A DNA stretch of 64,000 nucleotides from the NCBI GenBank assembly GCA_963779865.1, contig CAVZZX010000003.1:1924429-1988428 (forward strand), in the 5' to 3' direction. Origin of the DNA: an uncultured Gammaproteobacteria bacterium (GTDB lineage Bacteria; Pseudomonadota; Gammaproteobacteria; CAVZZX01). Made by a program: the position numbers and the translations under genes. The notes beneath the pieces were generated by a model that worked only from the letters and a program-made list of their open reading frames with translations, did not search any database and was not told where the DNA came from. This document shows, in pieces, positions 15,922 to 40,062 of the stretch (position 1 is its first letter; each line of letters starts with the position of its first letter).

Positions 15922-16989
15922 TCAGCCGACCCGCATGCGGGTCGGCACCCCCTGCAGACCGCCCTCGAGCACACTTGCCGCGAAGCCGCTCTGGGCGAGC
16001 AGGAAGCTCGCCGCGGCGCTGCGCCGCCCGGTGCCGCAATAGCACACATAGTGTGTCTGGCGGTCCAGCTCGTCCTGGCGCTCGCGCAGCTCGTGCAGCG
16101 GAATGTTCAGGGCGCGCGGCAGGCGCTGGTGCCGGTACTCGCGGGGATGCCGCACGTCGAGCCAGCGTGCCCCTTCGACGATCCTGCGGCGCGCCTGATC
16201 GACCTCCAGGCGCTGCACCAGCGGCTCGTGCAGCAGCGCATCGAAATCGCTCTTGGCCAGCCGCATCAACGTCCCCGCCGAGGTCATGGTGACGGTGGCG
16301 TTGCGCTCACCGCCGCAGATCAAGGCTTCCTCGCCGAACACCGCACCCGGCCCGATGTCGGCGAGCGCAACGGTGCGCGTCACGCGCGCCGTCCCCTCGG
16401 TGAGTACGTAGTAGTAGTCCCCGGCTTCGCCCTGACGCACCACCACCTCCCCGGCCCTGGCCTGCACCGGGCGCATGCGTTCGAGCAGCGGCCGCACATG
16501 GGCGGACGGGAGGTTCTTGAAGGCCATGATGTGGCGCATGCGCCCCACCCAGTCGCGGGGGGCAGGAGGGGCGGGCTCGGCGAGGCGCTCGCCGGGCTGC
16601 GGATCTGCCTGCAGCGGCGCGGCGCTGAGCTGCTCCCAGCTCAGCATGTAGTCGAGAATGCTGTTGTCGATGCGCAGCAGCGTGACCGCGCTGAGGCTCA
16701 CGGCATCCACCTGATGCGGTTGGCTGGGGTCGAGGGCGGCGCACGCCGCATCGCTGCCGCCGCTCACCACACGCTCGAGGGTGCGGCCGGCGCCGCTCAG
16801 CTGCACATTGCCCTGCAACACGAACACCGACTGCCCGTCGACGTCACCCTTGCGGAAGATGGTCGTGCCCATGCCGAGGCGCTCGACGCAGGAGAGGCCG
16901 AGGAGTTCCTCCAGGCGCGCGTCACTGAGCGACGCGAGCGGCTGGAAGCCGCGCAACTGACTGGGGCCGATCCCCGGGAGAGCGTCCAT
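15922..16989 (-). CDS. Two cyclic-nucleotide-binding domains fused to a rhodanese domain
   Basis: Two CAP_ED-like segments (FGEEALI..., RKGD), C-terminal rhodanese with active Cys (YCGTGRRS). Confidence 0.65.
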   Translation of the reverse strand: MDALPGIGPSQLRGFQPLASLSDARLEELLGLSCVERLGMGTTIFRKGDVDGQSVFVLQGNVQLSGAGRTLERVVSGGSDAACAALDPSQPHQVDAVSLSAVTLLRIDNSILDYMLSWEQLSAAPLQADPQPGERLAEPAPPAPRDWVGRMRHIMAFKNLPSAHVRPLLERMRPVQARAGEVVVRQGEAGDYYYVLTEGTARVTRTVALADIGPGAVFGEEALICGGERNATVTMTSAGTLMRLAKSDFDALLHEPLVQRLEVDQARRRIVEGARWLDVRHPREYRHQRLPRALNIPLHELRERQDELDRQTHYVCYCGTGRRSAAASFLLAQSGFAASVLEGGLQGVPTRMRVG

Positions 16990-17184
16990 GGCCGCGTTCC
17001 TTTGCGTTCTTGTGGGCGACACGAGCCGTGTAACGCACCATTGGTAACGCATCGGTGACACACCCGACGTGACAGCGTTCGCATTTCGCCCGCTCCCCCC
17101 CGGGCTGCGGCATCGTGCGCCCGCCGGCCCGGGCCGCGGACATCGCTGGCTTCCCGCCGCGCCAGGGGCGCAACCGGTCGCCGG

Positions 17185-17805
17185 CTAGACTCCCAAGGCG
17201 CAGTCGAGCGCGGCGGCGATCCCCTTGTCGGCCCCCGGGCCGAACTGCGTGGTGCCCGGCTCGAAGCGGTCGGTGAAGGCGTATTCGTACTTCACGTCCT
17301 GCAGGCCCAGGGCGCCGAACAGGCGCGTCTCGAAAGACTGATCGTCGGCGTGCTCGATCAGCGTCGGCCAACCGTCCGCCCCCGGCTCCAGGATCGGGCC
17401 GAAGAACACCACGCCGGGCTTGTTCTTCAGGCGCAGTGCGCAGCTGCCTTGCGTGCGCCCCGACATGGGCAGAAAGTCGATGGTACGGGTGAGCTTGGTC
17501 TGTGTATTCAGGCTCAGGTCGACGGTGCCCTCGATGGCGGCGACCTCGGCCTCGAAGGCCAGCGCCTCGGCGCCCGAGGCCGCGCGCCAGGCGTCGAGCT
17601 CGTGCGCCCCGAAACGGCTGGGCAGGAAGATGAATTTCAGCGGTGCCAGCGCCTGCAGCGCCTGCAGGGTTTCGGCGGAAAAGGGGGGCGTATTGACCAG
17701 CACGCCGTTGACTTCCCGGTCGACGATGTAATACACCGCAGGATGTCCCGGCGGGACAGGCACGAGATAAATCCTGCGACCGACGATGGAAAGCAGCTCC
17801 TGCAT
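17185..17805 (-). CDS. Hypothetical protein (possibly degenerate MBL-fold)
   Basis: ORF with coding-like composition; no catalytic motif recognised. Confidence 0.35.
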   Translation of the reverse strand: MQELLSIVGRRIYLVPVPPGHPAVYYIVDREVNGVLVNTPPFSAETLQALQALAPLKFIFLPSRFGAHELDAWRAASGAEALAFEAEVAAIEGTVDLSLNTQTKLTRTIDFLPMSGRTQGSCALRLKNKPGVVFFGPILEPGADGWPTLIEHADDQSFETRLFGALGLQDVKYEYAFTDRFEPGTTQFGPGADKGIAAALDCALGV

Positions 17806-17880
17806 GAGAACACCCGTGGAAGAATGGGGCCCCTACCTTAGCCGAAGCCCTGCGGGGCCGCCAGGGCGGAGCGATCCACC

Positions 17881-18513
17881 GTGAGCACCGGGGGCGCGGA
17901 CCTGCTCCTGCTCAGCGGTGGCGTGGAGAGCACGACCCTGCTCTATCGCCTGCGCGGGCAGCCGCTGCACGCCGTAAGCATCGACTATGGGCAACGCGCC
18001 GCCGCACGCGAATACGCCGCCGCACGGTGGCACTGCGAACGCCTGCAGGTGCCATTGACCCGTCTGCAGATGCCCCAGGCGGGGGAGGCGTTCCGGGCGC
18101 ATCAGACGCACAAGCTGCACGTCCCCATCCCGCACCGGAACCTGTTCATCCTCAGCCTGTCCGTCGCCTTCGCCGCCCAGCAGGGGGCACGCCGCATCTA
18201 CCTGTCCATCAACCGGGAGGACAGTGAACGCCACCCGAGCGCGGCGCCGGGGTTCCTCGAACGTTTCAACGCCATGGTGCAGGCGCTGGAGCCGATCGCC
18301 GTGCACACGCCGCTGGCCGCCGATAGCAAGGCGGCGATCATCCTTCAGGGCCTGAGCGCCGGCGTGGATTTCGCCCATACCTACAGCTGCCTGCTCGGCC
18401 ATGCACGCCATTGCGGCGGCTGCCCGCAATGCCGCAGCCGACGCGCCGCCTTCGCGGCCGCGGCGCAGAGTGAGCCGGCGGGTTTCTACCGGCACGGCGG
18501 CGACGTAGTTTAA
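17881..18513 (+). CDS. queC: QueC-like PP-loop ATPase (7-cyano-7-deazaguanine synthase homolog)
   Basis: PP-loop LLLLSGGVESTT, IDYGQR, C-terminal Cys cluster CGGCPQC; shorter and divergent vs E. coli QueC (SGGxES not SGGxDS). Confidence 0.6.
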   Translation: MSTGGADLLLLSGGVESTTLLYRLRGQPLHAVSIDYGQRAAAREYAAARWHCERLQVPLTRLQMPQAGEAFRAHQTHKLHVPIPHRNLFILSLSVAFAAQQGARRIYLSINREDSERHPSAAPGFLERFNAMVQALEPIAVHTPLAADSKAAIILQGLSAGVDFAHTYSCLLGHARHCGGCPQCRSRRAAFAAAAQSEPAGFYRHGGDVV

Positions 18514-18540
18514 GGTGCCCGGTCCCGCGGCCGTTATACG

Positions 18541-19860
18541 GTGAACGAAGGGAACTCGCGCACAGCGCAGAATCGCGGCATGGGCTCACCGGAAATCTCA
18601 CGCACGGCGATCATTCAGAGCCTCCTGGAGGCCGCTCAGGTCAAGACCGCAACGCGGTGCACGCCCGGAGCGATGCCGCGCCGCGGCTGTGCGGTGCTGT
18701 TGCGCCGAGGCGAACAGGTGCTGCTTGCCCTGCACGATACCCGGCGCCGCCTGGACCTCGCCGCGCTCGAGCGGGAGCTCGGCGAAGGGCTGCGCCCGGC
18801 CCGGCCCGAGGAATGCGCCGAGGCGATGTTCATGCACCGGCCCGGCGCCGGCGCACTTCTGCTCGCGGTGGACCTCGACGTGCGTGCCGACGAGACCGTC
18901 GAGCTCGTCGAGGCGGAGCACCGCCTGTACCTTCCCGCCGCGGCCCTGCTCGGCACCCCTGCCGCGCGGCGCGGGCACTTTACGCACGCCCGCGCGCCGG
19001 GCCCCGCAGCCGGGCTGGACGCGCGCCTGCAGCGGCTGGAGCAGCTGCCCGGCCCTCCGCAACTCGCCCGCCGCCTGTTGCTACTCAGGGGCAACCCGCA
19101 CGCGACCGTGGCCGGGCTGTGCACCGTGGTCGAGGAGGACGCCGCGATCGCCGCGCAAGTCATGCGCGTGGCCAACTCCGCGCACTACGGGGCGGGCGCG
19201 GTGGCGACCCTGGAAGCGGCAGTGCTGCGCGTACTCGGCTTCGAAGCGGTGCTGCACATCGCCATGGGCATGGCGGTGCGCAGCGGGCTGGAGCTGCCCC
19301 AGGACGGCCCCCTCGGTGCGCAGCGCCTCACCCGGGACGCCATCTACACGGCGGCCGTGGCCGAACACCTCGCCGCCGCGCTGCCGCGCCGGCGACGCCC
19401 GGTGCCGGGCAGCGCCTACCTGGCCGGCCTGCTGCACGACATCGGCTATCTGGCCATGGCGCAGCTGTTCCGCAGCGAGTATTTCTGGCTCAACAAGCTG
19501 CTGCAGGCCCATCGCGAGGCGGCACCGCTGGACATCGAGTGCCGCCTGCTCGGCACCGATCATGCCGACCTCGGAGGCCGCCTGTGCGCGGCCTGGTCGC
19601 TGCCCGCTGCGGTGATCGCGGTCGCCCATCACCACCACGATCCCGACTACGCCGGCGAACAGGCCGACGCCGTGCGGCTGGTGCAGGTCGCCGAGCGTCT
19701 GCTCGCGAGTCAGGGGCTGGGCGCCAGCGGGCCCGACGAGCTGCCCGAGGCGCTGCTCTCGGCGCTGGGTCTGGAGGAGGAACAGGTGCTCGAACGCTTC
19801 AGCGAGGTGCTGGCGGACCGGCTCAATATCGAGGCGATGGTCGCCGCCGGCACCGCCTGA
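18541..19860 (+). CDS. HDOD domain signalling protein
   Basis: HDOD-like segment LPGPPQLARRLL...VMRVANSAHYG...LLHDIGYL; start uncertain. Confidence 0.55.
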   Translation: MNEGNSRTAQNRGMGSPEISRTAIIQSLLEAAQVKTATRCTPGAMPRRGCAVLLRRGEQVLLALHDTRRRLDLAALERELGEGLRPARPEECAEAMFMHRPGAGALLLAVDLDVRADETVELVEAEHRLYLPAAALLGTPAARRGHFTHARAPGPAAGLDARLQRLEQLPGPPQLARRLLLLRGNPHATVAGLCTVVEEDAAIAAQVMRVANSAHYGAGAVATLEAAVLRVLGFEAVLHIAMGMAVRSGLELPQDGPLGAQRLTRDAIYTAAVAEHLAAALPRRRRPVPGSAYLAGLLHDIGYLAMAQLFRSEYFWLNKLLQAHREAAPLDIECRLLGTDHADLGGRLCAAWSLPAAVIAVAHHHHDPDYAGEQADAVRLVQVAERLLASQGLGASGPDELPEALLSALGLEEEQVLERFSEVLADRLNIEAMVAAGTA

Positions 19861-27724: not shown

Positions 27725-28669
27725 CTAGGTGTGTAAACCCACCAGGTTGTTCACGATAAGCCGTGAGATCGGAGGCCGATAGCCGAGGCTGGCGTGCGGT
27801 CGGTGCCAGTTGTACTGATGCAGCCAGGGCAGGAGGTGCTCGGAGCGCTGGTCGGAGGAGACGTAGGCGCGGGCATAGGCCCATTCGCGTAGCGCGGTCT
27901 GGATGAAGCGCTCGGCCTTGCCATTGGTGCGCGGGGTGTAGGGCTGCGTGCGCAGATGGCGCAGCCCCAGACGACGGCACAGGCGCGCAAAGCGCCGGGA
28001 CAGATAGCAGGCGCCGTTGTCGGTCAACACCCGCTGGAAGCGGATGCCCAGTCCCCGGTAGTAGCGCAGCACCTGCAGCAGAAAGGCGCAGGCGCTGCGG
28101 CCGGTCTCATCGGGGTGGATGGCGCCGAAGGCGACTCGGGAGTGGTCATCGATGGCCACGTGGACATACTCCCAGCCGGCCCCGCGGGAGCACTGGCGTC
28201 GGTCCTCGGTGGCGCGGTGCCCCGGGACGCGAAAGCGCCCGAGTTTCTTGATGTCCAGGTGCAGCAGCCCGCCGGGCTGGGCGTATTCGTAGCGCCGTAC
28301 CGGCGGGGCGGGCTCGAGCTGGGCCAGGCGATTGAGCCCCATGCGGCGCAGCCAGCGCCCCACCGTGCTGTGACCGATCCCCAGCCGCTGGCTGATCTGG
28401 CGGTAGGTCTGACGGGCCCGGCGGCATTCGACCAGCTGGGCCCGGCGCTGCGAGCAGAGTGCGTGCGGGCTGTGATGGGGACGCGAGGGGCGATTCGCCA
28501 GGCCCGTCGGCCCCTCCTCGCGGTAGCGCTGGAGCCACTTGTAGGCGGTGCGCACGCTCACGCCGGCCGCCTGGGCCGCCTCGCGGGGGCGCAGGCCCTG
28601 CTCGAGGATGCGACGCACCAACAGCTCTCGACCATGGACGGTTAATCGGGCATTTTTATGGTTGTTCAT
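27725..28669 (-). CDS. IS481 family transposase
   Basis: N-terminal HTH, rve integrase core domain (DDE); stop codon formed at flanking CTAG. Confidence 0.85.
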   Translation of the reverse strand: MNNHKNARLTVHGRELLVRRILEQGLRPREAAQAAGVSVRTAYKWLQRYREEGPTGLANRPSRPHHSPHALCSQRRAQLVECRRARQTYRQISQRLGIGHSTVGRWLRRMGLNRLAQLEPAPPVRRYEYAQPGGLLHLDIKKLGRFRVPGHRATEDRRQCSRGAGWEYVHVAIDDHSRVAFGAIHPDETGRSACAFLLQVLRYYRGLGIRFQRVLTDNGACYLSRRFARLCRRLGLRHLRTQPYTPRTNGKAERFIQTALREWAYARAYVSSDQRSEHLLPWLHQYNWHRPHASLGYRPPISRLIVNNLVGLHT

Positions 28670-28753
28670 TCGGGGCTCCCGGAGGTTGGATTTGGTTTGC
28701 ACCTCCAGTCTTCCGGGTAAGCCCCGAGTGAACAACCTACTGAGAGATCACAG
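27729..28753 (-). mobile_element. IS481-family insertion sequence
   Basis: Single DDE transposase ORF; imperfect about 30-bp terminal inverted repeats sharing AGGTTGTTCAC; flanked by CTAG on both sides (27725-27728 and 28754-28757). Confidence 0.8.
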
Positions 28754-29716
28754 CTAGGCATTGTGCTCGTCGGGCGGAGGGCAGGCCGGGGCGCCCGCCA
28801 TCCGCCCCATCTCGCCGAGCATGCGTTCGAGCTGCGCCCGCGAGTCGGGAAAGCGGCCCGCCTGGTGCAGCTCATGGCGGCGGTTGTGGGCGACCTGATC
28901 GATGCGGTCACGTACGTCGGGGTTCTCCTGGATGAAGGCGAGAAACGGTGCACAATCGATACGCAGGACCTCCAGGTCGCTGCTTGCGGTCACCGTGGCG
29001 GCGCGCGGCGCGCCCGTGAGCAGCGACCACTCGCCGAAGTAGTCGCCGGGCCCGAGCAGGGCGAGGTTGAGTGCAGGCCCGCCGGCCCGGTGCGAGACGC
29101 GCGCCGCGCCGTAGACGATGACGAACAGCGCATCGCCGGGCTCGCCCTCCACGACGATCGGCGTGCCGGCGCCGAAACACAGCAGCGCGGCCTGCTCCAG
29201 CAGTTGGTCGCGCGCCTCTTCGGGCAGATAACGCAGCAGCGGCACCGCACGCAGGCCGGTATGCAGGACCCGGCTTCGATAGCGTTCGAGCACCCCCTCG
29301 CGCACGCGCGGGTTGCGGGCAATCAGCGTGGCGAGCACAGCGCCGGGGATTTCCAGCAGCAGGGTTTCGCGGCTGGCGGTGGCCGTGGACAGGCGCGCCG
29401 CGCCAAACAATGCCCCGATTTCCCCGCACAGCTCGCCACAGCCCAGGCGCGCCAGACGCACCGGCTCGCCGTCGACCACTTCGGACACGGCCACCTCTCC
29501 GGAGAGCAGGAGGAAGGCACGCTCGTCGCGCTCGTGCTGGCGGCAAAGCACCGCGTCTGCGGCCACCCGGCGCAGCACGCCGTGCTCCACCAACAGCTCG
29601 CGATCGGCGTCGCTCAACAGGGCGCCGAAGGCGGACGGCCGGCTCAGCACCCGCTGTACGAGCTGCAGCAACTGCGCCGCACCGGGAGCCGCACGATCGT
29701 CGAGTTTGTGCGCCAT
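28754..29716 (-). CDS. Protein with two cyclic-nucleotide-binding domains
   Basis: Two CAP_ED-like segments (GEVAVSEVV..., FGEWSLLTGAPRAATV); stop codon lies in the CTAG at the IS boundary. Confidence 0.6.
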   Translation of the reverse strand: MAHKLDDRAAPGAAQLLQLVQRVLSRPSAFGALLSDADRELLVEHGVLRRVAADAVLCRQHERDERAFLLLSGEVAVSEVVDGEPVRLARLGCGELCGEIGALFGAARLSTATASRETLLLEIPGAVLATLIARNPRVREGVLERYRSRVLHTGLRAVPLLRYLPEEARDQLLEQAALLCFGAGTPIVVEGEPGDALFVIVYGAARVSHRAGGPALNLALLGPGDYFGEWSLLTGAPRAATVTASSDLEVLRIDCAPFLAFIQENPDVRDRIDQVAHNRRHELHQAGRFPDSRAQLERMLGEMGRMAGAPACPPPDEHNA

Positions 29717-39597: not shown

Positions 39598-40062
39598 TCA
39601 GACGAGACCGGCCTTGTGCATGGCGCGGTGCTTGGCGGCGATGAAATCGCGATGCGGGACGTACAGCAGATCGGCGATCTTGCGCACCAGATGCTCCTCG
39701 TACTTGTCCAGCTCGCGGTCGGCAAAGGCGACCTGCCACATCAGCTCGATGAGGTGTGTCTTCTGCTCGGGGGAGAAGTGATCCTTGATGAGCGAGGTGA
39801 ACTGGTAGTGCGAGGTCGAATTGTTCGCCCGCCGCCCCGCCACGTCGATGAGCTCACTGGTGGCCTCCTCATCCAGGTCGAAGGTGCGCTGCACCGCACG
39901 GCGTAGCGCCTCCACCTCCGCGGCCTCCTCGCTGTGGTCGGCCCGTGCGGTTTCGATCAGCAGCGCGGCCGCCGCCAGCCGCACGCGCCGCTCCAGATCG
40001 GCCTCGGCCGCACCGTCCGTCTCGAGGTGCTGCGCAAAGAAGCGTTTTATGGCGTCTATCAT
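39598..40062 (-). CDS. TerB-family (tellurite resistance TerB-like) protein
   Basis: All-helical about 150 aa with TerB-like acidic pattern. Confidence 0.6.
   Translation of the reverse strand: MIDAIKRFFAQHLETDGAAEADLERRVRLAAAALLIETARADHSEEAAEVEALRRAVQRTFDLDEEATSELIDVAGRRANNSTSHYQFTSLIKDHFSPEQKTHLIELMWQVAFADRELDKYEEHLVRKIADLLYVPHRDFIAAKHRAMHKAGLV

Follow-up and report, generated by a model that had tools for sequence, protein, structure and literature searches.

The locus described here raises the question of whether a divergent gene of the QueC superfamily, located apart from queuosine genes, encodes the housekeeping enzyme of queuosine synthesis or a protein with another role. The gene specifies a 210-amino acid (aa) protein and lies in a 64,000-nucleotide stretch of DNA from an uncultured Gammaproteobacteria bacterium (GenBank assembly GCA_963779865.1, contig CAVZZX010000003.1, positions 1,924,429 to 1,988,428 of the forward strand), the whole of which we refer to as the window. 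An earlier note on this DNA had considered either a housekeeping queC or a paralog with a distinct role, embedded in a signaling neighborhood. Our analyses favor, at a probability of roughly 0.62, the reading that the gene product is a stand-alone enzyme, stably encoded on the chromosome, from a separate and uncharacterized clade of the QueC superfamily, that its substrate would be something other than 7-carboxy-7-deazaguanine (CDG), and that its neighbors would play no part in its function. This clade, which we named family X in the present analysis, is an uncharacterized variant clade of a known superfamily.

The best Pfam and NCBIfam matches of the protein are to QueC, and Foldseek comparison of its AlphaFold2 (AF2) model (predicted local distance difference test, pLDDT, 95) gave template-modeling (TM) scores of 0.74-0.79 to Bacillus subtilis QueC (3BL5) and 0.73-0.84 to Cap9 (9NTO), the QueC-like deazaguanylase of type IV cyclic oligonucleotide-based antiphage signaling systems (CBASS). 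Structural alignment yielded identities of 28% to B. subtilis QueC and 25% to Cap9, and the two proteins are approximately equidistant from the window protein, both by sequence and by fold. The protein had been called short and divergent, and this description holds, i.e., identity to E. coli QueC is 24% (E = 1.7e-4) and ~14 residues of the canonical 66-95 loop are deleted. Its score on the equivalog model TIGR00364 was 99.3 bits, under the cutoff of 150.3 bits, as compared with 295.8 bits for the E. coli QueC control. Similarly, nine other family-X members, plants included, scored 77-117 bits on this model, all under the cutoff.

Canonical QueC carries the signature SGGxDS, YxQxHxxE, VPxRN, YPDC, K165, and C(x)8CxxCxxC, and each of the substitutions Y35A, R99A, Y131A, and Y189A kills the activity of the E. 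coli enzyme (Libby et al. 2026, PMC13329287). The corresponding motifs of the window protein are SGGVES, YGQRAAARE, IPHRN, HPSA, C-L, and the cysteines C170/C178/C181/C184, the C-terminal zinc motif reading C170...C178GGC181PQC184. Relative to E. coli QueC (whose numbering is used for His39, Asp133, Cys134, and Tyr189), the protein keeps Tyr35, Gln37, Arg99-Asn100, Asp127, Lys165, the four cysteines, and an equivalent of Glu42, whereas the loop Asp is changed to Glu, His39 to Ala, YPDC to HPSA (i.e., Asp133 to Ser and Cys134 to Ala), and Tyr189 to Leu. The retained Tyr-x-Gln, Arg-Asn, Asp, and Lys belong to the ATP/adenylation core, which is intact. We counted these residues in the 120 nearest homologues of the window protein and in 34 canonical-like representatives, with the following results: (i) in the PP-loop, Asp has given way to Glu in 110/120 homologues and persists in 10/120, as against Asp13 in 34/34 of the canonical-like set, a conservative change that probably leaves the loop functional; (ii) YGQRAAARE departs from YxQxHxxE in that Glu is one residue off and His is absent in 120/120; (iii) VPxRN is represented by IPHRN, with Arg and Asn present in 120/120 and His at position 98 in 107/120; (iv) the YPDC motif is YPSA in the family consensus, and the Tyr131 site is Tyr in 89/120 and His in 21/120; (v) the Tyr189 site is Leu in 113/120 and Met in 7/120; and (vi) the zinc site, spaced C170-(x)7-C178-xx-C181-xx-C184, retains all four cysteines in at least 119/120. 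Thus, His39, Asp133, Cys134, and Tyr189 were each found in 0/120 homologues, while Asp133, Cys134, and Tyr189 occur in 33/34, 29/34, and 32/34 canonical-like sequences, respectively. The family also has extras of its own, namely, additional histidines (HVPxPHRN) and the tail EPxGFYR at the C-terminus. By every test run, therefore, the window protein is, as judged from its sequence, a non-canonical QueC. Of the idea that it is a paralog with a distinct role, the first half stands, given the failed cutoff, the four lost signature residues, and the separate clade described below; the distinct role is probable.

The pattern of loss and retention bears on the substrate. The structure of Cap9-CdnD shows the 7-deazaguanine base hydrogen-bonded to D117 and stacked on Y115 and R86 (bioRxiv 10.1101/2025.04.06.647259). 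In our alignment, Cap9 D117 corresponds to QueC Asp133 and to the Ser of family X; by this correspondence, the stacking platform is kept, and family X has lost the residue reading the guanine-like edge. A substrate other than CDG is most likely, because every member has another residue in place of the Asp that contacts the 2-amino-6-oxo edge and because the gene is retained in plants and algae unable to make CDG. If CDG, which is guanine-like, is not the substrate, then it follows that the family-X protein would not be the cell's preQ0 (7-cyano-7-deazaguanine) synthase. The PP-loop chemistry of QueC, Cap9, GMP synthase, NAD synthetase, and LarE is established, and we used it as a model for the reaction. 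By analogy, Arg86 and the Tyr/His of 'YPSA' would sandwich a planar substrate, whose carboxylate (or oxo) group would be adenylated at the expense of ATP, as in other PP-loop enzymes; ammonia or an amine might then attack the adenylate to give an amide, or possibly a nitrile. A more far-reaching proposal, namely, that family X consists of housekeeping ligases of the QueC type, shared from proteobacteria to land plants, with a chemistry undescribed for the QueC fold (either an amide or a nitrile would be formed on a heterocyclic carboxylate that does not resemble guanine, or such a compound would be conjugated to a protein outside any defense system), is in our estimate doubtful.

Family X is defined by the combination of SGGx[ED]S, YGQRxxxxE (no His), xPHRN, Y/H-[PA]-S-[AS], C-[LM], the shortened loop, and the EPxGFYR tail, and the window protein carries every one of these elements. 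It is 40-78% identical to the aligned bacterial members; plant members share 43-46% identity with other bacterial members and fall in the same clade as the window protein. A scan of 1.84 billion representatives returned 36 clusters at E <= 1e-30, with lower scores grading smoothly into canonical QueC. When the motifs of the top 150 representatives were tabulated, they split cleanly into two types, the first being family X (SGGx[ED]S / YGQRxxxxE / PHRN / Y[PA]S[AS] / C[LM]) and the second carrying SGGxDS / YGQRH / VP[NG]RN / [YF]PDC / CY. Profile searching gave a score gap as well, family X scoring at least 194 bits and canonical QueC at most 157 bits. A neighbor-joining (NJ) tree, built from 81 sequences, separated family X from canonical QueC, Cap9, and a further clade (loci L070-L087; see below) with 71-76% bootstrap. 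A tree had been suggested as a check, and it places the window protein outside canonical QueC.

In bacteria, family X belongs to sulfur-oxidizing beta- and gammaproteobacteria and to Sorangium; the carriers comprise Sulfuriferula, Sulfurirhabdus, Thermithiobacillus, Thioalkalivibrio, Acidihalobacter, Acidiferrobacteraceae, Sorangium/Polyangiaceae, and many Burkholderiales and gammaproteobacterial metagenome-assembled genomes (MAGs). The family was absent from the plasmid and phage collections, in which the matches were canonical QueC at no more than 34% identity. Eukaryotic carriers are the bryophytes Riccia, Marchantia, and Physcomitrium and the cryptophyte Hanusia. The gene of Marchantia polymorpha (AP019869.1; L091:8001-9959) spans 1,959 bp with ~7 exons on a 27-Mb chromosome and adjoins KIN17; being intron-rich and so placed, it is a nuclear gene rather than a contaminant. 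It bears the annotation '7-cyano-7-deazaguanine synthase', and M. polymorpha is an organism from which preQ0 synthesis is not expected. N-terminally extended family-X proteins occur on protist contigs, where the adjoining genes encode ISWI-type remodelers, and these extended relatives showed no informative domain fusion. One of them carries HEAT repeats, and a 593-aa protein of Hanusia phi (P0257, EukProt) combines RWP-RK with a family-X QueC-like domain; either may be a gene-model artifact.

Our literature searches retrieved no paper on the family-X clade. De novo preQ0 synthesis is lacking in eukaryotes, and the eukaryotic members of the canonical 'Cluster 1' have been treated as transfers or contaminants; Table S1 of the same survey places in that cluster a haptophyte sequence whose best match is from Physcomitrium (Libby et al. 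2026, PMC13329287). Family X seems, at least in part, to be hidden within this published cluster, i.e., the latest survey of the family appears to keep at least some of its members in the large canonical group. Single-linkage clustering at E 1e-30 fails to split the two motif types, which is probably why the published network does not single out family X.

If the protein were instead a divergent but functional housekeeping QueC, converting CDG to preQ0 for queuosine-tRNA, the top Pfam and NCBIfam matches to QueC would be expected, as would the fold, the PP-loop, the zinc site, and the equivalents of Y35, R99-N100, and K165, all of which are present. The gene is also a stable, single-copy chromosomal gene in a housekeeping region, and its relatives are annotated '7-cyano-7-deazaguanine synthase' in the source databases. 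In addition, tblastn and Pfam scans of ~65 open reading frames (ORFs) revealed no second QueC in the 64-kb window. The same searches found no queD, queE, queF, tgt, or queA, in keeping with the observation of the earlier note that the gene does not sit with queuosine genes; tgt/dpdA homologs, for which it had proposed to look, were likewise absent from the window. However, all family members tested scored under the equivalog cutoff, and none of the 120 homologues has the base-binding Asp133 or Tyr189, the latter being essential in E. coli. Plant genes with introns, from organisms that do not produce preQ0, also belong to the clade. Moreover, when the ORFs of 73 loci were clustered and the recurrent neighbors annotated, no queD or queE was recognized among the recurrent clusters beside family-X members, whereas 33% / 26% of canonical QueC genes have queD/queE neighbors; the argument is a weak one, as the majority of canonical queC genes are unlinked too. 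We therefore consider a housekeeping preQ0 synthase unlikely, albeit by no means negligible.

Several points weigh against the reading of family X as a clade with a substrate of its own. Because the catalytic core is largely preserved and the majority of homologues (89/120) retain Tyr131, residual CDG chemistry is possible; the proposal of another substrate derives from altered residues rather than from a family-X structure with bound ligand. The tree is distance-based and its bootstrap for the clade (71-76%) only moderate, and single-linkage clustering at E 1e-30 joins family X to canonical QueC via intermediates. Finally, were canonical queC lacking from the carrier genomes, the family-X protein would have to be their preQ0 synthase.

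These distinctions matter because databases call family-X proteins '7-cyano-7-deazaguanine synthase'. If the substrate does differ, reconstructions of the queuosine pathway would be wrong at this step for sulfur oxidizers, Sorangium, bryophytes, and algae, and a conserved enzyme of unknown function, common to bacteria and early land plants, would be open to study, with Marchantia and Physcomitrium as genetically tractable hosts. Interest would rise further if the eukaryotic distribution reflects new chemistry, in which case family X would add a new branch to eukaryotic PP-loop metabolism, eukaryotes being considered to lack QueC altogether.

As regards the surroundings of the gene, the earlier note had described a QueC homolog with SGGVES and CGGCPQC flanked by HDOD, cyclic nucleotide monophosphate (cNMP)-binding/rhodanese, and possible degenerate metallo-beta-lactamase (MBL) proteins, and all four genes were recovered:

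15922-17061, - strand: cNMP-binding (twice) and rhodanese protein (Pfam cNMP_binding in two stretches, and Rhodanese).
17185-17805, - strand: degenerate MBL-fold protein of 206 aa (no Pfam or NCBIfam match).
17881-18513, + strand: QueC-superfamily PP-loop/zinc-ribbon protein of 210 aa (Pfam QueC PF06508, 121.7 bits, E = 3.9e-35).
18541 (or 18580)-19860, + strand: HDOD protein (Pfam HDOD, 142 bits).

The window is ~70% G+C, and its real genes can be recognized by a G+C content at third codon positions (GC3) above 0.82. The QueC-like gene has a GTG start with GGAG 10 nt upstream and is separated by 75 bp from the divergently transcribed MBL-like gene. The HDOD gene, for which the gene caller set the start at 18580 on an identical contig, is codirectional with the QueC-like gene and begins 27-66 bp downstream of it.

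A neighborhood of this kind, seen in one genome, calls for comparison with relatives before any functional reading. The proximity of the QueC-like and HDOD genes, with no terminator-like site between them, would fit a functional module in which the QueC-like, HDOD, and cNMP/rhodanese proteins make or sense a deazapurine-type signal, and the same arrangement recurs in L004 (the identical contig) and L043. Nevertheless, the HDOD neighbor was confined to the window and these two loci; it is missing from L005, the closest relative, whose QueC-like protein is 78% identical, and from L001 (Ectothiorhodospiraceae bacterium 2226). The cNMP/rhodanese neighbor is present in L005 and L043 and absent in L001, and neither gene stands beside the QueC-like gene in the other ~55 family loci or in the eukaryotes. 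The HDOD gene is an insertion specific to this lineage and lies outside the conserved unit. Since both genes are missing from close relatives, the signaling context is incidental; the claim of a meaningful signaling neighborhood fails, and we regard such a module as highly improbable.

Across the 73 loci, the QueC-like gene has no universal neighbor. The order found in the window (FIST, aldo-keto reductase, HIT, cNMP/rhodanese, and MBL-like genes, followed by the divergent QueC-like, HDOD [not always present], and glutathione S-transferase [GST] genes) recurs only in the sub-lineage of the window. Other lineages place the gene beside an operon of ABC exporter, hydrolase, and MazG-like genes, adjacent to TerB and HU, or with metG on one side and an rnfB-like gene on the other, and the recurrent neighbors are lineage-specific, comprising ABC exporter, alpha/beta-hydrolase, MazG-like, TerB, SlyD-like FKBP, YccV-like, RnfB-like ferredoxin, MarC, and VanZ proteins. 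The pattern is that of a vertically inherited stand-alone enzyme, and neither of a signaling module nor of a defense island. Two apparent cases of additional QueC relatives were discarded: a tandem second QueC-like ORF in Sulfuriferula is a spurious antisense ORF, and a downstream PP-loop match in four loci is argG. In other gammaproteobacterial lineages (L017, L020, L024, L032, L040, L044, and L049), the gene immediately upstream of the QueC-like one encodes a TerB-domain protein, and in the window a TerB gene (39598-40062, - strand) lies 21 kb from it. This distribution suggests an old shared region (HU, FIST, TerB, and the QueC-like gene) that has since been rearranged.

The compactness of the protein also raises the possibility that it acts as a Cap9- or QatC-like ligase, joining a nucleobase carboxylate to a protein N-terminus in a conjugation of the deazaguanylation type outside of defense, its target being either unlinked or a neighbor such as the MBL-like protein. 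Cap9 and the window protein share a minimal QueC fold with a shortened loop, an R-N motif, the Lys, and the zinc ribbon, and the spacing Y/F-x-Q-(x)5-E of Cap9 is identical in the window protein (Y-x-Q-(x)5-E). The upper Foldseek value (TM 0.84, normalized to target) was obtained for Cap9, which is also the nearest outgroup in the NJ tree, and the QueC model of PADLOC matched at 67.9 bits. Within the window sub-lineage (L001, L005, and L043), moreover, the MBL-like gene adjoins the QueC-like gene. In contrast to the window protein, however, Cap9 keeps Y-x-D-C, with D117 on the base, at the position where the window protein has Ser, and it has C-E where family X has C-L/M. No CD-NTase (a nucleotidyltransferase of the cGAS/DncV type), Cap10 (tRNA-guanine transglycosylase [TGT]-like), or Cap11 neighbors were found in the window or in related loci, nor were QatA/B/D or other defense genes nearby, and the gene shows stable vertical inheritance and was not found in the plasmid and phage collections. 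The MBL-like protein starts with Met-Gln (MQELL), not with Gly as reported for the QatB N-terminus. We judge a ligase of this kind to be quite improbable.

The MBL-like protein was rejected as a dedicated partner, given that its family is widespread without a QueC-like neighbor, e.g., in Acidihalobacter and Sulfuriferula AH1. Likewise, on the 709,889-bp contig L040, no MBL-like gene occurs within 10 kb of the QueC-like gene, and the contig apparently also carries an MBL-like homologue (P0143). The MBL-like family is strongly conserved, at ~60% identity in gamma- and betaproteobacteria; the HxHxDH metal site is gone, no His is invariant, and the closest structure is that of the uncharacterized Ava_3068 (2P97).

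Set beside the other known systems, the window protein shares with canonical QueC the fold, the PP-loop, the four-Cys zinc ribbon, core residues, and a similar size, and differs in that its gene lacks linkage to que genes and its clade has eukaryotic members. QatC of the QatABCD system has the QueC-superfamily PP-loop core and zinc site in common with the 210-aa window protein, but is ~400 aa long, with N- and C-terminal extensions and a remodeled active site, and is encoded with qatA/B/D; we found neither a KAP NTPase nor a TatD neighbor, and no PADLOC Qat match. For the Dpd system, no TGT-family protein was detected in the 64-kb window, and the sole match was a 13-bit stretch to DpdF. With only domain-level PADLOC matches, no dpdA/TGT-like, CD-NTase, or Qat genes nearby, and the base-binding Asp of Cap9 replaced, the analogy to DpdC and to CBASS QueC-like proteins drawn in the earlier note does not carry over to this locus. 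A mobile-element or defense origin was rejected on similar grounds, i.e., the absence of family X from plasmids and phages and the domain-level nature of the PADLOC matches.

The next-best structural neighbors after QueC and Cap9 were YcfA proteins of 6-thioguanine biosynthesis (9KQ6-9KQD; TM ~0.6), which are likewise small stand-alone PP-loop enzymes and act on a purine, but belong to another family (16-18% identity). Cluster 4 QueC-like proteins, which are associated with PfkB/deoxyribosyltransferase genes (Libby et al. 2026), resemble the window protein in being proteobacterial and slightly shorter than QueC, in having YGQR(A)xxxE without the His, and in their zinc ribbon. The L070-L087 sequences are probably this Cluster 4. 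They differ from the window protein by their TPGRN, FPDQ, and C-H motifs, ~30% identity, and a clade of their own with 100% bootstrap, and their genes (e.g., L071:10001-10561) lie in a fixed codirectional four-gene cassette in Pseudomonas, Brenneria, Xanthobacter, Rhodobacter, and others.

Of the flanking proteins, the HDOD protein has an N-terminal region of ~165 aa with a sub-threshold match to YbaK/aminoacyl-tRNA editing domains (23.6 bits, cutoff 25.5), and a YbaK-like region together with HDOD is an unusual combination for an HDOD protein. The cNMP/rhodanese protein retains the rhodanese active-site loop CGTGRRS, and its domain composition suggests a cyclic-nucleotide-regulated sulfurtransferase in a genome of the sulfur-oxidizer type. 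The genes around them are of ordinary housekeeping character (accC, prmA, dusB, fis, purH, purD, PRK, rimO, FIST, aldo-keto reductase, HIT, GST, SBF transporter, Rieske, SnoaL, YjbQ, phosphoesterase, HU, and HAD); no Rfam family (tRNA, riboswitch, or small RNA) reached its gathering score anywhere in the 64 kb. An IS481-type transposase gene (27725-28735) lies directly beside a gene for a second protein with two cNMP domains (28754-29716), the pair occupying 27725-29716 on the - strand.

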